64,000 nt of DNA from Bacteroidaceae bacterium (GCA_963624045.1 CAVFNI010000006.1:6166-70165), one strand, 5' to 3'; numbered from the stretch's first letter, positions 5,808-57,835 are shown. Made by a program: numbers and translations. Notes: a model not told the origin generated them from the sequence alone.

Positions 5808-6107
5808 GAAATTGATAAATGAGATGAATATTTGGGAAGAAGGAACCCGTAAAGAAGAAAAAATCCCCCTACGTTTGGTAAGAGGTTTCAGCTTCAAGCT
5901 CCGGAGTTCCATTTTTCTTTCCGGAAGAAAACTCTAACAAGGAAAGGGGACGGAAACAATCATTTTTTATAAACGATTTTCGACCTCAAAAATATTTTCC
6001 AAACCTCTTTCCAAAGGAAAGGGGAGGCAAGATGAAAGATGTAACCAAAAATGAAAGTGCTTTCACCACCAAAGGGGGTGGTTTTCTTTTAAAATTAGGC
6101 AGTCGAA

Positions 6108-6173
6108 GTCGTATATGCCGGTAATATGGTCCAGCAGTCTCTACGCCCTCTCCTCAAAACTGGGCACTACGAC
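6108..6173 (+). ncRNA. Purine (guanine-type) riboswitch-like aptamer upstream of the PbuG-like permease.
   Basis: P1 GUCGUA/UACGAC. The P2 loop UAAUAUGGU is identical to pbuE/xpt L2. J2/3 is GUCUCUAC and J3/1 is ...CACUA. P3 has a non-canonical loop. Total 66 nt. Confidence 0.45.
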
Positions 6174-6188
6174 GAAAATCCCTAGGAG

Positions 6189-6214
6189 CGAAACGGCAGC
6201 TCTTTCGGCTTTTT
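6189..6214 (+). terminator. Terminator of the riboswitch expression platform.
   Basis: CGAAA-cggcagctc-TTTCG GC TTTTTG. Confidence 0.4.
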
Positions 6215-33358: not shown

Positions 33359-34654
33359 TTATTCCTCTTTTTCTTTAGGTGACACGGCCAACTTCTCGAC
33401 GGCCCCGTTTCTATCGACAGCCAAAACCTTGATGGAATAGCCTTTATAGGATACCTCATCCCCTGGTTTGGCGAATTTATCATCCAATAATTCGACGATA
33501 TAGCCGCCAATCGTGACGTATTCGGTGTCAGTTTCGTCGAAATCGATGCCTAGGAGATTGCAAAAATCCTCCAACGTCAAAGAACCGTCGACGATATAGC
33601 CACCGTCTTTCTTCTTAAGGTATTTGGCTTCGGGGTCATCTTTCTCATCCCAGATTTCCCCGACGATTTCCTCTAAGATGTCCTCCATCGTGATGAGCCC
33701 TTCGACACCGCCATATTCATCCATGACGATGCCAAAATGCTTCTTCTGCCTCTTGAAGGCCTTAAGGACGTCATTGATCTCCGCGCTACGCGGGAAGCGC
33801 AACGGCTCTTCCAACAAATTCTCCAAATTAAGCAATTGGCCACTCATCTTAGCCAACATGAGATTCTTCGTCTTGACGAAACCGATGATGTTATCGATGG
33901 TGTCACGGTATACGGGGACGCGGCTATAATGATAGACCTTTGGGTTATTGGAGACTTCTTCGATATCCTCGTCGATATCGATGGCAAAAACGTCGACGCG
34001 CGGCGTCATCACCTCATAGGCTTCCGTGTGGGTATAGCGGATCGTCTCATGAAGAATGTTCGCCTTTTCCTCATCGACCACGCCTTGTTCTTCGATGCCG
34101 TCGACCATTTCATGCAAATCGTCTTCGCTTATGGCAATATCCGAAACGTTTTTGATGATCGGCTTCGAAAGAAGGTCACCGAAACCGCTCACTAAGAAAG
34201 TGATGGGGAAAGTAAGCCAAGAAAGAACCTTCAAAGGAAGCGAATACCACGCCACCAATTTGAGGTTATAAATTTTGCCAAAGCTCTTAGCAATGATCTC
34301 GCCAAAAGTGATTTTGACAACGAGACAAATCATCGAAGCGACGAAGCCCCACAATTCCGCTTCAGAGGAGGTGCCGCTAAAAAGCTCGACGCAGATGGTG
34401 ACGCCTAGCAAGGTGCTGACCGAATCTAGACCGGCGTTGACGGTGTCGTTCAATAGCAAAATCGTAGAAATCGTCTGAGGATAATGATCGGAGAGTTTCT
34501 TCGCGGTCTTTAGGCGTTGGCTGTTTGGTTGCTTACGGCACATCTCCTCTAACCTAATGGCGCTTACCGAACCATAAGCCATATCGCTACTCGAAAACCA
34601 AAAAGAAAGGAGAAGAAGAACGAAAAGAGCTATAGAATAAATAGTGATTAGCAT
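33359..34654 (-). CDS. CNNM/CorC-family (hemolysin-C-like) membrane protein: DUF21 + CBS pair + CorC_HlyC.
   Basis: 431 aa. N-terminal 4-TM DUF21, tandem CBS, C-terminal transporter-associated domain. Confidence 0.85.
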   Translation of the reverse strand: MLITIYSIALFVLLLLSFWFSSSDMAYGSVSAIRLEEMCRKQPNSQRLKTAKKLSDHYPQTISTILLLNDTVNAGLDSVSTLLGVTICVELFSGTSSEAELWGFVASMICLVVKITFGEIIAKSFGKIYNLKLVAWYSLPLKVLSWLTFPITFLVSGFGDLLSKPIIKNVSDIAISEDDLHEMVDGIEEQGVVDEEKANILHETIRYTHTEAYEVMTPRVDVFAIDIDEDIEEVSNNPKVYHYSRVPVYRDTIDNIIGFVKTKNLMLAKMSGQLLNLENLLEEPLRFPRSAEINDVLKAFKRQKKHFGIVMDEYGGVEGLITMEDILEEIVGEIWDEKDDPEAKYLKKKDGGYIVDGSLTLEDFCNLLGIDFDETDTEYVTIGGYIVELLDDKFAKPGDEVSYKGYSIKVLAVDRNGAVEKLAVSPKEKEE

Positions 34655-35766
34655 CTTTTTTCTCCTTTCTTATAAATGGTCTTTCGGTCATTGGATTCGT
34701 CGATGTCTTCGACCAATTCTTCTAAAATATCTTCCATGGAGACGATGCCCACGACTTGGCCACCGCTCATGACGACCCCTAAATGAGTTAAGGCGGCGTT
34801 AAGTTTTTCAAAAGCGTCATTCAAAGTCATATCGATATCGATATAAACCGGTTGCTCCATGATGGAACGGAAATCCAAATGCGGGTCTTTGGCATATTCC
34901 TCGAAATAGATTTTGACCACCAAGACACCAATGATGTTTGTCTTCTCTTCGTCGTAAATAGGCAAACGCGAATAAGGGCAATCCATGATGGTTTTATTAA
35001 TATCGGCAATCGAAAGATTGGCGGCGTTGAGGGCAAAGGTATCCGCCAAAGAGGTATAAACTTGACGAACTTTGACCTGATCAAAGGAAAAGACGTTATC
35101 GATTAATTCCGTTTCGTCGTTTTCAAAAAGGGCTTCAGCTGGTTTTTCCTCGTCATCTTCATCCATAGGCTCATCGACAACGGCTTGTTTGGTGCTTTCG
35201 ATGATCTCCTCTTTGGACAAAAGGTTTTGATCGGTCACTTTGAAAATCTTATGGACCAAAAAGAGGATAGAACGGAACAAAAGAATAATCGGATAGGCAG
35301 GGAGGGAAAAGATGAAAACAGGATAGGCCAAGAACGCCGCCATGCGATTGGGTAAGGATTTGCTAAGGATTTTTGGCAAAGTATCACTTACAACGTACAC
35401 CAAAGCAGCCATCACGATGGTCGATAAGATGGCATCAAGACCGGAAAAAAGACCCCATTCCTTACTAAGCTCATAAAATAGCATAGCACTTAAGTAGGAC
35501 ATGATTGTTTGGACAATGTTGTTACCAACTAAGATCGAAACCAAAGTGTTATCGAATTTGTCGACCAATCGGCAAACCAATTTGGCGGTAAAATTGCCCT
35601 TATTGGCCAAAGCCTGAAAATGGTAACGATTGCAATTGGAAAAGGCGTTTTCGCTAGCGCTAAAAAGGGCGCTGACAAATAACAAGACGGCAACGATGAT
35701 CCAACAAACCCAACTCGGCATCCCCCAGATGGTCGAAGCATCCGCGGAAAGCGTATTGTTTAGCAT
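34648..35766 (-). CDS. CNNM-family DUF21 + CBS-pair membrane protein (no CorC_HlyC domain), tandem paralog.
   Basis: Start uncertain: ATG MLNNTL at 35766, or a GTG 21 nt upstream that has an AAGGAGAA RBS. The ORF track extends to 35853. Confidence 0.7.
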   Translation of the reverse strand: MLNNTLSADASTIWGMPSWVCWIIVAVLLFVSALFSASENAFSNCNRYHFQALANKGNFTAKLVCRLVDKFDNTLVSILVGNNIVQTIMSYLSAMLFYELSKEWGLFSGLDAILSTIVMAALVYVVSDTLPKILSKSLPNRMAAFLAYPVFIFSLPAYPIILLFRSILFLVHKIFKVTDQNLLSKEEIIESTKQAVVDEPMDEDDEEKPAEALFENDETELIDNVFSFDQVKVRQVYTSLADTFALNAANLSIADINKTIMDCPYSRLPIYDEEKTNIIGVLVVKIYFEEYAKDPHLDFRSIMEQPVYIDIDMTLNDAFEKLNAALTHLGVVMSGGQVVGIVSMEDILEELVEDIDESNDRKTIYKKGEKRC

Positions 35767-35892
35767 CGTACACGAATCAGGGTCCACGTCGGTAATTCTC
35801 CTTGAATGGCGAATAGTATAGCAAAAATTGTCAATATAGCAAATTATGGCCACTTCTCTTCACGCGCTTATGCCGATCAAATAAGCAAATAA

Positions 35893-35923
35893 CGCAAAAA
35901 ATAAGCGGGTTGGCCCGCTTATT
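35893..35923 (-). terminator. Intrinsic terminator downstream of the lipoprotein gene.
   Basis: Minus strand: AATAAGCGGG-ccaa-CCCGCTTATT followed by TTTTTGCG. Confidence 0.8.
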
Positions 35924-35943: not shown

Positions 35944-38430
35944 TTATGACACTGGATAAACCTGGGTGAAGGTCATTTGGAAGTTATATAGAGGAATATC
36001 CGGATGAATCGTAACGATGAACGAATCTGGGCCGGTATAACCAGTATAGATTGTGGATTTTCCCGAAAGCACTTTCGCTATTTTATTTTCCTTTTGGCGC
36101 TCGGTGCCATCTTGATTGTACATAGCGTGGTAATTTTTATCGGTGATATCTTCACCATCTCTATTCACGATATTAAATTCAAAGAACTTGCCTTCGGGAA
36201 GGGTAATCTCATAGAAACCATATTGGCCGGTGTTTATGCTTGTGGCGCCAGTTCCCTCACTCGGAGAGAAAGTATAAGTCTTTTCGTCAGCGCTCATAGC
36301 GAAAGTTCCGTGCGTAACCATATATCCGCAACCGCCATCGAGTTCCTCATTGCAATAGCCGGTTTTGTAATACCCATCAAGGTGCGTATGAACGCTCGTT
36401 ACCTTACCCACCAAAGCGGCTTTGCCACTAGAAGCGGCCAAGAAGCTGACGAATTCGTCACCTACTTGCACGGGGTAGGCATTGCCGGGATTAAATTCGA
36501 AGGTGACCTTCCTTTCTTCGCCAGTTGGTATCGATGAAACATGTTTATTGTCACTATCTCTAATTTCGATAATTTCGGCATTATTTACTTGCATTCCTTT
36601 GCCGCTAAGATCACTAAAGCTGTTATTACCAGAGGCATAAGTCATTGAAAGATCGGGGACAAAATAAAGGCGGGGCTTCTCGTAATATTTATATTCGTAG
36701 GTCGAAAGGTTCTTTAATGTCACGTCGAATTGCGGAATGGATTTAGCGCTTTCGGCATCTCCCCATATAGATAAACCGGCGCCTCCATAAACGGAATTAA
36801 ACAATTCTTTTATATCCGAAGAATCTGGGGAAATTAAATAAAGCTTGACGAAATCGTATTCGAATCTTCCTGCTCTATCGATGCTATTGCCGTTATTATC
36901 TTCAATTTTCTCCACTTGCGCCGGCTTTACGATGTGCGAGAAATAAACGGTATCGCCGACGGCCACTTGCCCAGCTTGAATGTAACCTGTCGAAATGACT
37001 TCGGTATATGTGCTGTTTATTTTTGCCGTTTGAACGAGGCGGAATGTCTCGTCGTTAAGAACCTCCAGGGTGAGCGTCATGCCATCCCATTCTTCAGGCT
37101 CCTCGTATGTGTAATTACCATCAGAAAGAAGCAAATGTTCAGATGAGAATTCGTGCGTACCGATCTGCCACATTTCTTTGTCGCCTTGTTGGGCGTCGTC
37201 ATACAAATAGACGTCGTCCCCTGGCAAAACACCATCCTCTTCGGTGAAGCGATAGATGAGGTCGTAATGTCTCTCCAAAGCGCTACGGGTGAATTTCCCA
37301 CTCTTAGCGGAAGAAGGGAGAGTCAAGGTCCTCTTGGTGGAAATCGTATATGTGTCCTTATCCAAAACGAGCTTATAATTCGCGGCGTCATCGCCTGATA
37401 AGGTTATGTTTCCTTTAGAAAGGGAGGCGCTCGCAGTTACGTAGGAATAACCATAATCGACATCAACGTTAATGTCGTCTCCATCAACCGCGCCATATTT
37501 AACCAGAACATCAGTCTTTTCGTCTTTGACGTTAGAAATCGTTTTGGTACTGGTGCCATCATAAACTTTATCGAGGTTTAGCCCCGTGCCCAAAACACGT
37601 TGCTCAATCACGAAAGTCACTTGCATTTCGTTGGCTTTAAAATCCTCGCCCTCAGAGATAGCCGCCTTAATTTTGTATGTGCCGACGTTTTTAGGCGCAT
37701 CGGCGGCCTCATACCAAGCGGAATCTCCCTCTTTTTGATAGGTAACGGTAACGGCGCCATTCTGGCAAGAGAAACTATCCGCGTTGATAAAAGCGCTGAT
37801 CTTTCTGCCATCATAAATGCCTTTCAATTGATCTTGGCTTATTAGCAATGTGATCGGCGAATCCTTCTTTTCGAGCATCGGGATGGTTTCGTTTTTCTCA
37901 TAGGAGCAAGTAAGGCAAGTATAATGTTGCGATCCATTCGCCGTGTATGTAGCTGGCGTATCGACAACTGGCTCCGTCGAGAAATTATGCTCGGCATAAG
38001 AATCCTTTTCGTCGGTATGGGCGCAAGTGGCCTTATGCCAATGATGGGTTTCGTTTTGCTCCCAGTTTTCGGTATCGAAGGTATGAACGTGCTCTATCAC
38101 CGGAAGAACTTCCTCCTTCTTATAAGAGCAGGTCAAACAGGTATAGGTCTTAATGCCCGTCTCGGTCTCGGTAGCGGGTTTCGTTTCCGTCCCCTCGTCG
38201 AAATTGTGTTTGGCTTTCTCGGAGACGTCGGTATGACCGTTTGCGAGGCACTTTTTCCAGTGATATTCCTCATCATACGTGTAGGTATCGCTGTAACTAT
38301 GCTTCACCTCCGAAGACGACGGCGTAGAATCGCTAGAGGCAGAGCCACTATCGGATGATTCCCGATGTCCGCATGCGGAAAGCATACCAAGCATGGCAAG
38401 AGAGGACGCCAAAAGCAGTTTTTTGTTCAT
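35944..38430 (-). CDS. Large surface lipoprotein with two Cys/His-rich repeats, YDG/MBG-like repeats and a C-terminal region of about 450 aa of unknown fold.
   Basis: Start at MNKKLLLASSLAMLGMLSACGH, a canonical lipoprotein signal with lipobox LSAC. The repeats read HxWHKxxCxxxHTD...HNF...TYTCLTCSY.K.E and KVYDGTST. 828 aa from this start. Confidence 0.75.
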   Translation of the reverse strand: MNKKLLLASSLAMLGMLSACGHRESSDSGSASSDSTPSSSEVKHSYSDTYTYDEEYHWKKCLANGHTDVSEKAKHNFDEGTETKPATETETGIKTYTCLTCSYKKEEVLPVIEHVHTFDTENWEQNETHHWHKATCAHTDEKDSYAEHNFSTEPVVDTPATYTANGSQHYTCLTCSYEKNETIPMLEKKDSPITLLISQDQLKGIYDGRKISAFINADSFSCQNGAVTVTYQKEGDSAWYEAADAPKNVGTYKIKAAISEGEDFKANEMQVTFVIEQRVLGTGLNLDKVYDGTSTKTISNVKDEKTDVLVKYGAVDGDDINVDVDYGYSYVTASASLSKGNITLSGDDAANYKLVLDKDTYTISTKRTLTLPSSAKSGKFTRSALERHYDLIYRFTEEDGVLPGDDVYLYDDAQQGDKEMWQIGTHEFSSEHLLLSDGNYTYEEPEEWDGMTLTLEVLNDETFRLVQTAKINSTYTEVISTGYIQAGQVAVGDTVYFSHIVKPAQVEKIEDNNGNSIDRAGRFEYDFVKLYLISPDSSDIKELFNSVYGGAGLSIWGDAESAKSIPQFDVTLKNLSTYEYKYYEKPRLYFVPDLSMTYASGNNSFSDLSGKGMQVNNAEIIEIRDSDNKHVSSIPTGEERKVTFEFNPGNAYPVQVGDEFVSFLAASSGKAALVGKVTSVHTHLDGYYKTGYCNEELDGGCGYMVTHGTFAMSADEKTYTFSPSEGTGATSINTGQYGFYEITLPEGKFFEFNIVNRDGEDITDKNYHAMYNQDGTERQKENKIAKVLSGKSTIYTGYTGPDSFIVTIHPDIPLYNFQMTFTQVYPVS

Positions 38431-38475
38431 GGTAATTATCCATTCCTTTCTAGTAATAGAATACAAGAAAGAACT

Positions 38476-38483
38476 CCCCCCCC
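38476..38483. repeat. C8 (G8 on the coding strand) homopolymeric tract in the lipoprotein promoter/5' region.
   Basis: ctCCCCCCCCgc on the plus strand, about 45 nt upstream of the lipoprotein ATG and adjacent to TTGACT. The surrounding 100 bp are extremely AT-rich. Confidence 0.8.
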
Positions 38484-38584
38484 GCAAGAGTCAAATATAA
38501 AAATTTTTATTTTTACAAATTAATATTTTATCTATTTATTATTGAATTATTTTAATAAATGTAATTGTATTTTAATCTTGTCAA

Positions 38585-38800
38585 TCAAAAACCAATCGGT
38601 CCTTCGTGTTTGGCGATAACCTTTTTTAGCGAATGATTGAAATGGTCGCGGTCCATCATAATGACGTTGCCACACCCCAAACATCTGATTTTGATATCCG
38701 CACCCACGCGGACGATTTGAAAACGCTTGAAATGATTGGCGCAAGGATGGGATTTCTTCATCTCCACCTCATCGTATAAAGAATAAATTATTTGTTCCAT
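38585..38800 (-). CDS. DUF951-family small zinc-ribbon protein.
   Basis: 71 aa. EVEMKKSHPCANHF...RVGADIKIRCLGCGNVIMMDRDHF matches the conserved DUF951 pattern (CxN...GADIKIxCxGCxxxIMM). Confidence 0.6.
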   Translation of the reverse strand: MEQIIYSLYDEVEMKKSHPCANHFKRFQIVRVGADIKIRCLGCGNVIMMDRDHFNHSLKKVIAKHEGPIGF

Positions 38801-48046: not shown

Positions 48047-48390
48047 GGAGCATCCGGCCCGATAAGCCATGTTCTGTCGAGGGCGAACATTCATCTCAGG
48101 TTTCCCTGGAAGGGTCGTCTTCATTTGGATTTCCCTTCTTCCCCTACCAAATTTGGGTTTCTCGCTTGTGGGGTTTACCGCGTTTCACCTTGTTGTCGCC
48201 AACAAGCTCGTCTCTGTGGCACCTTGGGGAGAATCGTCTACGGGAGACTCCTCTCACGCCGTCACGCGCTCCGGGCGTGCCTAGGCTTATTGATTAACCT
48301 AGCGCAATCACTACATCCGTCGCAGGATGTGCGAGCATGGACTTTCCTCTGGTTTCCCAGCGGTCGCCTGGGCCGGATTAGCCGCTTCGT
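48047..48390 (-). ncRNA. rnpB: RNase P RNA, type B (Bacillus-type).
   Basis: Reverse complement contains AGAGGAAAGUCCAUGCUCGCAC (P4 region, identical to B. subtilis), a P3 hairpin CCCAGgcgaccgCUGGG, ends able to form P1, and the second P4 strand near the 3' end. Lies between the gpsB-like gene and pgsA. Confidence 0.85.
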
Positions 48391-57656: not shown

Positions 57657-57798
57657 TCCTCCTGCTTCAGGAGGTAAAAGAAACGTTTTGGCCTCTCTTA
57701 TCCGGACTTTACCGTTGGCATCGGAATTGCGCCGATTCATGCTTTCGCTTGCGGGCTATACCGCCAGTCGGCGTATCTAACGCCGCCCTGAAGCGAAC
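57657..57798 (-). ncRNA. FMN riboswitch (RFN element) with an RBS-sequestering helix.
   Basis: Minus strand: CGCUUCAGGGCGG.GUUAGAUACGCCGACUGGCGGUAUAGCCCGCAAGCGAAAG ... GCCAACGGUAAAGUCCGGAUAAGAGAGGC. This matches the conserved RFN halves of the B. subtilis ribD leader (GGGGCAGGGUGAAAUUCCCGACCGGCGGUAGUAAAGC / CCGACAGUGAAAGUCUGGAUGGGAGAAGG). It is followed by ACCUCCUG-aag-CAGGAGG, which pairs with the SD. A TATAAT -10 sits just upstream. Confidence 0.8.
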
Positions 57799-57835
57799 AA
57801 ATTATACGCCAATTGCCAACGCAAAAGAAAAGGAA

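Follow-up and report, generated by a model that had tools for sequence, protein, structure and literature searches.

A putative phase-variable surface lipoprotein with IgA protease-type ZBD repeats and a probably EF-Tu-like head

Phase variation through homopolymers in promoter spacers is known from vlp of Mycoplasma hyorhinis (poly-A) and from porA and opc of Neisseria meningitidis (poly-G/C), and homopolymer phase variation has mostly been documented in pathogens and mycoplasmas. Whether EF-Tu is a true adhesin has long been debated, owing to its lack of a secretion signal. A review reports that EF-Tu, a protein without such a signal, binds mucins and fibronectin when present at the surface (PMC6822514). 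The ZBDs of the IgA protease of Thomasclavelia ramosa consist of three-stranded beta subdomains joined by predicted zinc sites of two His and two Cys; they form an extended rod by small-angle X-ray scattering, are dispensable for catalysis and were proposed to be a new fold that serves as a spacer or 'periscope' (PMC12237041, PMC12415215). Their zinc was regarded as putatively structural, at fully coordinated sites, and not treated as a means of metal capture (PMC12415215, PMC12237041). Here we describe a gene that shares features with each of these systems. It lies in a stretch of 64,000 nucleotides filed under Bacteroidaceae bacterium (GCA_963624045.1, CAVFNI010000006.1:6166-70165), hereafter called the window, at positions 35944-38430 of the minus strand (stop codon 35944-35946, ATG at 38430) and encodes 828 amino acids plus the stop codon; all parts of the gene discussed below are on this strand. 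We lean towards reading the product as a phase-variable, lipid-anchored surface adhesin with a ZBD stalk, an EF-Tu-derived head and expression tuned by a G tract.

The N-terminal region and its Cys/His repeats

The original prediction was of a surface lipoprotein with a duplicated, plausibly metal-binding Cys/His module followed by MBG/YDG repeats, an anatomy that the lipobox, a hidden Markov model (HMM) of the repeat family and the alignment to a 770-residue homologue (P0063) bear out as far as sequence can. It had also held that this combination could not be placed in any described family, and for the Cys/His module this no longer stands. The module consists of repeat 1 (38092-38304; residues 43-113; family HMM E 6e-24) and repeat 2 (37861-38091; residues 114-190; E 5e-22), which are 46% identical over 63 amino acids (BLASTP E 7e-15). 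The first database search with the lipoprotein returned 77 proteins; four are full-length relatives and most others match the repeats alone, usually several times. An iterated repeat HMM counts 428 copies in 77 proteins (1-12 per protein), a family of about 70 residues per repeat without an entry in Pfam or NCBIfam. When 28 double repeats (window sequence included) were made into a profile, it gave a single match among the PDB sequences, the IgA protease chain 9qa6_A (E 3.2e-29), in two stretches (846-978 and 1070-1142). These are the domains called ZBD1/ZBD2 in PMC12237041 and CTD2/CTD4 in PMC12415215, both published in 2025. By this match the Cys/His module of the lipoprotein is a homologue of the T. 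ramosa ZBD1/ZBD2, and all 428 copies are now tied to the ZBDs of one IgA protease. A PDB-sequence search with a full-length profile of five orthologues gave no matches, repeats included.

The column frequencies of 431 copies define near-invariant repeat positions (H1, W7, H14-W15, C18, C/H20, H29 and C52-x2-C55), and the motif positions listed in the original prediction coincide with the conserved H, W, HW, C, C/H, H and CxxC of the family HMM. The candidate His/Cys ligands are H44, H57, C61, H66, H75, C98 and C101 in repeat 1 and H116, H130, C136, H138, H148, C172 and C175 in repeat 2. The AlphaFold2 (AF2) model of residues 40-195 (pLDDT 93.1) is all-beta, with small sheets and five main strands per repeat, in keeping with the published three-stranded subdomains. 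Foldseek with this model against the PDB returned nothing below E 0.1, which agrees with both papers and indicates that 9qa6 leaves the ZBD domains unresolved. Residues 43-190 are candidates for zinc binding; it tells against this part of our reading that zinc binding by the ZBDs is itself a prediction, 'pending experimental validation' (PMC12237041).

The position of the repeats relative to the anchor bears on their role. Among the homologues, 22 have an N-terminal lipobox, and their arrays have a median start at residue 30 with a median of 638 residues behind them; 41 are LPXTG proteins, in which the array ends 69 residues ahead of the C-terminus. The lipoprotein set covers many architectures and the LPXTG set is largely one family. 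Proteins with unrelated enzymatic heads carry 1-12 of the repeats, which adjoin the anchor in every architecture examined. Since they lie next to the anchor at whichever end it sits, as a stalk predicts, this polarity in both lipoproteins and LPXTG proteins is comparative evidence for a stalk role, and the repeats fit a predicted stalk next to the membrane or wall anchor.

The protein begins with MNKKLLLASSLAMLGMLSAC, in which a charged n-region, a hydrophobic h-region and a lipobox follow each other (MNKK-LLLASSLAMLGM-LSAC). We searched for [LVI][ASTVI][GAS]C within about 35 residues, preceded by a positive n-region and a hydrophobic h-region, and the pattern found in the window protein is kept in the orthologues. 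The signal peptide with lipobox LSAC spans 38371-38430 (residues 1-20), with predicted lipidation at C20; the lipobox is kept in all orthologues, where it reads LSAC or LAAC. NCBIfam gave weak matches of the signal region to lipoprotein N-termini. Taken together, the 828-residue protein is predicted to be an SPase II lipoprotein lipidated by Lgt/Lsp. A Ser-rich low-complexity linker (GHRESSDSGSASSDSTPSSSEV; 38305-38370; residues 21-42) separates the anchor from repeat 1 and is the least conserved part of the orthologue alignment. The full-length orthologues are 91% and about 69% identical to the window protein, which contains 23 His and 10 Cys, nearly all Cys being conserved.

The repeats are followed by an MBG-like domain (37591-37848; residues about 195-280; Pfam MBG_3 E 8e-5) and a YDG domain with the motif KVYDGTST (37339-37590; residues about 281-364; Pfam YDG E 0.005). 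With the gathering thresholds of PF18887 (MBG) and PF18657 (YDG) as criterion, both just miss the cut-off: 23.1 versus 25 bits for MBG_3 (residues 201-260) and 17.5 versus 25 bits for YDG (residues 285-357). The YDG domain of the orthologue P0003 comes closer (E 3e-5, 24.6 bits, cut-off 25). An hhalign comparison of residues 11-413 with P0063, whose YDG domains are significant (E 1.7e-20), gave 99.35% probability and E 6.7e-21 over 337 columns, and by these alignments residues about 195-364 would be MBG and YDG domains in this order. The next segment (37060-37338; residues 365-457) is beta-rich and may be a YDG-like domain that has degenerated; a P0063 YDG domain aligns with no more than its first part, and an internal comparison of residues 365-458 with the YDG domain of the same protein was null (score reached by 10 of 60 shuffles). 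A PDB-sequence search with the middle region gave no matches.

The C-terminal head

For the C-terminal part, the original prediction gave about 450 amino acids without a recognisable domain. Direct searches agree: neither the full protein nor its C-terminal half had more than sub-threshold matches in Pfam and NCBIfam, an exhaustive phmmer search with residues 401-828 against 1.84 billion representatives returned only the protein's own cluster, a profile search with the C-terminal region found P0004 only, the C-terminal profile matched one meaningless glycosyltransferase and otherwise nothing among the PDB sequences, and a metagenome scan with the C-terminal alignment gave no matches. That no enzyme or substrate-binding family would match over the whole length also stood in Pfam, NCBIfam and the PDB sequences. 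About half of the region does not fit the earlier description, as residues about 460-682 are probably a strongly diverged module of EF-Tu domains 2 and 3 (D2-D3), an assignment drawn from profile comparisons. The D2-like beta-barrel (36796-37053; residues about 460-545) was placed by comparison with the heads of lipoproteins from gut metagenomes, and the D3-like beta-barrel (36385-36732; residues about 567-682) by transitive evidence through the same heads.

These intermediates were found in two ways. Firstly, P0063 has the same order of parts (two ZBD repeats, MBG, YDG), and its C-terminus is a significant EF-Tu D2 plus D3 (Pfam E 9e-9 and 2e-9; NCBIfam EF-Tu E 1.6e-24). P0063 (L013:3001-5313) has three YDG domains, and since its gene is internal to a 20-kb contig it is not an assembly chimera with tuf. 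Secondly, a metagenome scan with the full-length alignment gave 80 loci, several of them labelled as human-gut metagenome assemblies. The gut-metagenome lipoproteins share the stalk with the window protein (28-38% identity over residues 1-357), and in 17 open reading frames (ORFs) from these loci the stalk is followed by a clear EF-Tu D2-D3; most are about 668 amino acids long and two about 965. Their heads match a custom EF-Tu HMM with E 1e-18 to 1e-26, NCBIfam EF-Tu with E 2e-25 and solved EF-Tu chains with E 3e-21 (residues 348-537 against EF-Tu 201-392), and the head from locus L029 passes the Pfam D3 cut-off (28.3 versus 27 bits).

The profile of the five orthologues aligned to the profile of these gut heads (hhalign) with a score of 42.0 and E 5.1e-5 over 270 colinear columns, covering residues 455-788; the block-shuffle null was 17.7 +/- 2.8 with a maximum of 25.5 (z 8.7). 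Each domain also matched its counterpart separately: D2 against head D2 (residues 464-544) gave P 1e-4 and z 5.5, D3 against head D3 (residues 567-682) gave P 6e-4 and z 5.8, and in both cases none of 60 shuffles reached the score. Controls with mismatched domains were flat (z 2.0 and 0.1; 1 of 30 and 10 of 30 shuffles reached the score). When a mixed database of 534 proteins was searched with the C-terminal HMM, 16 head-family proteins ranked right behind the protein's own family and ahead of genuine EF-Tu. The D2 region also responded to EF-Tu itself, giving P 0.003 and z 3.6 with none of 60 shuffles against the EF-Tu D2 profile, and in the lipoprotein family weak matches to GTP_EFTU_D2, EF-G_D2 and Peptidase_U32_C turn up repeatedly around residues 471-521. 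These miss the Pfam threshold, with a best E of 0.0037 for EF-Tu D2 (one orthologue) and E 0.05-0.09 for EF-G_D2 in three of the five orthologues.

Comparison of the C-terminus with the single sequences P0063, P0005 and P0054 was weak (E 0.02-0.3), and with a profile of P0063 plus EF-Tu marginal (E 0.005, shuffle z about 3). When the P0063 head itself served as query, genuine EF-Tu swamped the results, and the search was discarded. Four points count against the assignment. The D3 region compared directly with EF-Tu D3 was null, its score of 12.4 falling below the null mean of 14.2. The default profile comparison with fewer sequences gave the same colinear alignment, but with E 0.0067 and 5.7% probability. 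An AF2 model of residues 455-828 from five sequences reached a pLDDT of 46.6 and so does not confirm the two-barrel fold; Foldseek with this model found nothing at E <= 0.001. Lastly, the link between the window protein and EF-Tu is, from these sequence comparisons, a remote and transitive one.

The module is followed by an orphan C-terminal domain (35947-36384; residues 683-828) that opens with H681-x-H683 ... C693 ... C701. The motif H681-T-H683 ... C693 ... C701 is invariant in five orthologues, and no other stretch of the C-terminal half is as well conserved; it sits where the second barrel meets the orphan domain (window 36330-36390, residues 681-701). These four residues could be an additional metal staple of two His and two Cys, beyond those of the ZBD repeats. 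For the last 145 or so amino acids, phmmer, profile, PDB-sequence and tail comparisons gave no significant homologue: the tail (residues 676-828) against the head-family tail gave P 0.23 and z 0.6 (16 of 60 shuffles reached the score), against the P0063 tail the score was reached by 2 of 80 shuffles, and against the L015/L016 tail the result was null. The AF2 model is of low quality over this domain (pLDDT about 60-80), and on this mediocre model Foldseek gave weak beta-sandwich matches (Clostridium perfringens enterotoxin C-domain, collagen-binding-domain and CUB type; E 0.01-0.05), which we treat as a weak lead from the model. A protein of 189 amino acids on a 1.1-kb contig, P0078, has the N-terminus of an ABC-transporter ATPase fused to a P0063-type tail (79% identity) and is probably a frameshifted or chimeric gene prediction.

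On metagenome contigs, several of them labelled human gut, lipoproteins of this kind form tandem clusters (L014:707-5376, L019, L020, L021, L026, L028, L029, L052 and others). The clustered proteins have a near-identical signal peptide, lipobox and ZBD repeat and differ in their C-termini. They comprise types of about 314 amino acids with an InlB B-repeat (Flg_new), of about 708 or 794 amino acids with MBG plus YDG, and of about 668 amino acids with EF-Tu D2-D3 plus a 130-residue tail. Their sequences suggest a paralogous family of surface proteins whose heads have been swapped.

The G tract, the putative promoter and the genomic setting

A run of eight G (38476-38483) precedes the gene. As 1.43 tracts of this type are expected by chance per 64 kb, its presence by itself is not beyond chance; it matters because its position is conserved and its length polymorphic. 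It is the only run of 7 or more G or C nucleotides (nt) in the window, and in the 5.5-kb locus no second homopolymer reaches 8 A/T or 6 G/C. The tract could be read in the window and at ten further loci. With flanks of the window type it is G8 in the window and L008, G9 in L011 and GTGGGGGG in L012; in a second sub-lineage, about 91% identical to the window, it is G9 (L005), G10 (L009) and G8 (L010); and in orthologues of about 69% identity it is G9 (L001) and G7 (L002) and is missing from L006 and L007. In three pairs the tract is the sole indel over 5.5 kb, namely L011 versus the window (99.60% identity), L011 versus L012 (99.54%) and L009 versus L010 (99.34%), and between L009 and L005 the indels are the tract and one extra T in the T run of the terminator. 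The upstream homopolymer thus behaves as hypermutable, in line with the original prediction: over 5.5 kb, strains of 99.3-99.6% identity differ by an indel in the tract and by at most one other. The interrupted tract of L012 (L012:1440-1460), equal in total length to G8, may be a stabilised, 'phase-locked' allele. The contig of L003, labelled Holdemanella, begins (L003:1-14) 13 nt upstream of the ATG, just downstream of the expected G tract, and this assembly break may reflect read heterogeneity at the tract.

In the upstream alignment, the blocks TTGC, G run, TAT(T/C)CT and ribosome-binding site are conserved amid diverged DNA. The Shine-Dalgarno-like sequence AGAAAGGA (38444-38451) upstream of the ATG is invariant in all ten aligned upstream regions. 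We infer a putative promoter (38458-38487) with a -35-like TTGCGG (38482-38487), a -10-like TATTCT (38458-38463) and between them an 18-nt spacer, in which most of the G tract lies. The spacer between TTGC(G/A)(G/C) and TAT(T/C)CT is 17 nt with G7, 18 with G8, 19 with G9 and 20 with G10, and the tract-less L006 allele has a spacer of exactly 17 nt plus a TG extended -10. The conserved position, the length steps of 1 nt and the variation between strains are together the mark of a contingency locus, and tract length may affect expression. Two other assignments were rejected: TTGACT at 38488-38493 as the -35 element lies 25-37 nt from any -10-like hexamer, at a distance that is not conserved, and a translational role of the tract through the TTG at 38487 meets the objection that this start has no ribosome-binding site and that the extension would precede the signal peptide. 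The same TTG had appeared as the start in an ORF listing, an artefact which passes through the G tract.

It is rather unlikely that the tract is a neutral, hypermutable or error-prone homopolymer and the gene constitutively expressed by read-through or from an AT-rich promoter further upstream, even though several observations lean that way or against phase variation. Both promoter hexamers are weak, at 3/6 and 4/6, and a consensus scan passed the site over; about one G8 per 64 kb is expected by chance, as said; and one lineage has no tract. No terminator separates the lipoprotein gene from the upstream FTHFS and DUF951 genes (no terminator-like hairpin between the DUF951 gene and the tract, 38484-38584), so read-through could give tract-independent expression. 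Further, the tract lengths are assembly consensus from different samples and not reads within one population. Against a neutral tract speak its same place between TTGC and TAT(T/C)CT despite diverged flanks, the retention of exactly 17 nt and the TG extended -10 by the allele without a tract, and its standing as the only homopolymer of its size in the locus. None of 30 ZBD-lipoprotein genes checked at the gut loci has an upstream G/C tract, and the tract is therefore specific to the orthologue group of the window gene.

The gene is closed by a terminator-like hairpin read from 35923 to 35900 (35900-35923), with a 10-bp stem containing five G-C pairs and a TTTTTGCG tail. Directly upstream lies a small DUF951 protein with two CxxC pairs (38585-38800, minus strand), whose gene overlaps the end of the FTHFS gene, and directly downstream are two overlapping CNNM/CBS (CorC/HlyC-type) paralogues (33359-34654 and 34648-35853, both minus strand). 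No other ORF in the window has the Cys/His repeat or a convincing lipobox. The lipoprotein gene occupies different chromosomal sites in different lineages. Rfam matches above the gathering thresholds are a purine riboswitch (6089-6189, plus strand), an RNase P class B (48058-48375, minus strand) and an FMN riboswitch (57686-57799, minus strand). The RNase P class B indicates that the host is a Bacillota bacterium, and an orthologue of 70% identity occurs in a metagenome-assembled genome (MAG) named Holdemanella (Erysipelotrichales); the host is probably an uncultured gut member of the Bacillota, order Erysipelotrichales. Orthologous loci of 69-70% identity are filed under MAGs of Hallerella (Fibrobacterota; L001), Sodaliphilus (Bacteroidota; L002) and Holdemanella (Erysipelotrichaceae; L003). 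L001 and L002 also share the promoter layout of the window, and the Hallerella and Sodaliphilus contigs are probably mis-binned.

Proposed working and comparison with known systems

In the adhesin reading, Sec export and lipidation of C20 would anchor the protein to the membrane by its N-terminus. Its N-terminal two-thirds, with the Ser linker, two zinc-stapled ZBD repeats, MBG, YDG and beta segment, would serve as a stalk that carries a lineage-specific C-terminal head through the wall, at a distance from the membrane. This head would consist of the diverged EF-Tu D2 plus D3 double barrel and the orphan beta domain of about 145 amino acids with its HxH...C...C motif. As the head is the likely ligand-binding part, the protein would most likely be an adhesin for a putative ligand. 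Slipped-strand changes within G7-G10 would alter the TTGCGG-TATTCT spacing, and expression would consequently vary from cell to cell. Of the earlier proposal of a variable adhesin or nutrient-capture protein, the first half survives as the best reading, a phase-variable adhesin; nutrient capture does not fit a protein without HxxHxH and without a substrate-binding fold, whose repeats adjoin the anchor.

A variable surface shield or decoy, which like the Mycoplasma Vlp lipoproteins would be switched on and off to evade antibody (IgA) or phage, has only a small chance of being correct. It shares with the adhesin the hypermutable G tract, and a monocistronic gene with its own terminator, a chromosomal site that differs among lineages and a fast-evolving head (64-69% identity between species; direct sequence search finds no homologue outside the clade) would suit it. 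However, conservation is higher in the head than in the linker and many head residues are invariant, which argues for a specific fold and function, and the window contains neither tandem paralogues nor size-variable repeats.

That the stalk carries a surface enzyme, with H681, H683, C693 and C701 of the orphan domain as the catalytic metal centre of a peptidase or hydrolase, we consider improbable. Many ZBD homologues do carry GH18, M23, NlpC/P60, transglutaminase-like or metallophosphatase domains, and the motif is, as mentioned above, the best conserved stretch of the C-terminal half. Yet no enzyme family in Pfam, NCBIfam or the PDB sequences gave a significant match, the weak fold matches are only to binding-type beta-sandwiches, and the motif resembles the structural sites of two His and two Cys in the stalk. 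A lipoprotein for zinc capture or storage, with repeats that bind metal reversibly for uptake like pneumococcal Pht or AdcAII-type lipoproteins, is very improbable: the His and Cys content, the conserved Cys and the extra invariant HxH...C...C at residues 681-701 would agree with it, but a regular-expression search of the protein finds no HxxHxH triad, Pfam and NCBIfam find no substrate-binding-protein or ZinT-like domain, the same repeats in 1-12 copies carry unrelated enzymatic heads and always adjoin the anchor, the sites predicted in the IgA protease have full coordination and are taken to be structural (PMC12415215, PMC12237041), and the neighbours of the gene (FTHFS, DUF951, CNNM/CBS) include no metal transporter.

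Surface lipoproteins from the human gut have thus been found whose head is an exported paralogue of EF-Tu D2-D3, and such a dedicated exported copy makes the question of EF-Tu as an adhesin testable. If it is true that these heads bind the mucin or matrix ligands of 'moonlighting' EF-Tu, this would be independent genetic evidence for extracellular binding by the D2-D3 fold, and a clean test system. More speculatively, gut Firmicutes might repeatedly have placed a duplicated EF-Tu D2-D3 behind a signal peptide on a zinc-stapled stalk, as an exported and lipid-anchored adhesin head, and the window gene might be a fast-evolving, phase-variable member of this group; we offer this idea tentatively. 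The gene also offers a candidate case of phase variation driven by a homopolymer in an Erysipelotrichales commensal of the gut. The limited literature collection that we consulted contained no description of exported lipoproteins with EF-Tu domains and nothing relevant on homopolymer phase variation in Erysipelotrichia.

The IgA protease of T. ramosa (Q9AES2, 9qa6) has a homologous repeat of about 70 amino acids, with the same His/Cys positions and predicted all-beta small sheets. It comes from the same bacterial order as the probable host of the lipoprotein, zinc binding is predicted in both, and in both the repeats adjoin the anchor and fit a spacer role. The ZBDs of the protease are C-terminal, before the LPXTG motif, and accompany a metzincin protease, whereas the window repeats are N-terminal, after the lipid anchor, and accompany a non-enzymatic head; in addition, the first knuckle of the window repeats has His as its second ligand (C61...H66, C136-x-H138), where the protease has Cys. 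With EF-Tu (PF03144, PF03143) the window protein is colinear over D2-D3 through the intermediates, but it lacks the GTPase domain, begins with a signal peptide and lipobox, and stays below every Pfam cut-off. We do not attribute the reported ligands of EF-Tu to it, as nothing shows this.

Closer to the window protein are the gut lipoproteins L029:1340-3343 (668 amino acids), L015:3972-6863 (964 amino acids) and P0063, which share with it the lipobox, two ZBDs, MBG and a two-barrel head. Unlike the window head, theirs are still recognisable as EF-Tu (E 1e-21 to 1e-25), and their tails differ. The gut ZBD lipoproteins stand in tandem clusters and have no tract in the 30 genes mentioned above, whereas the window gene is single and has one. 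In vlp, porA and opc a homopolymer likewise lies between -35-like and -10-like hexamers before a surface (lipo)protein gene and changes in steps of 1 nt between strains; the window differs in its host, a gut commensal resembling Erysipelotrichales, in a -35 element that overlaps the tract, and in that switching is putative. The 'periscope' stalks of SasG and Aap (G5-E repeats; PMC12415215) are likewise tandem beta-rich repeats without a large hydrophobic core that form a rod projecting a head; in the window protein the repeat fold is another, zinc is proposed as an intradomain staple and not as a dimerisation bridge, and there are two copies only. In its working, the window protein may be likened to the 'periscope' adhesins of Gram-positive bacteria and to phase-variable mycoplasma lipoproteins, and by sequence we would class it as a member of the ZBD repeat family and as a sub-threshold, remote relative of EF-Tu D2-D3.

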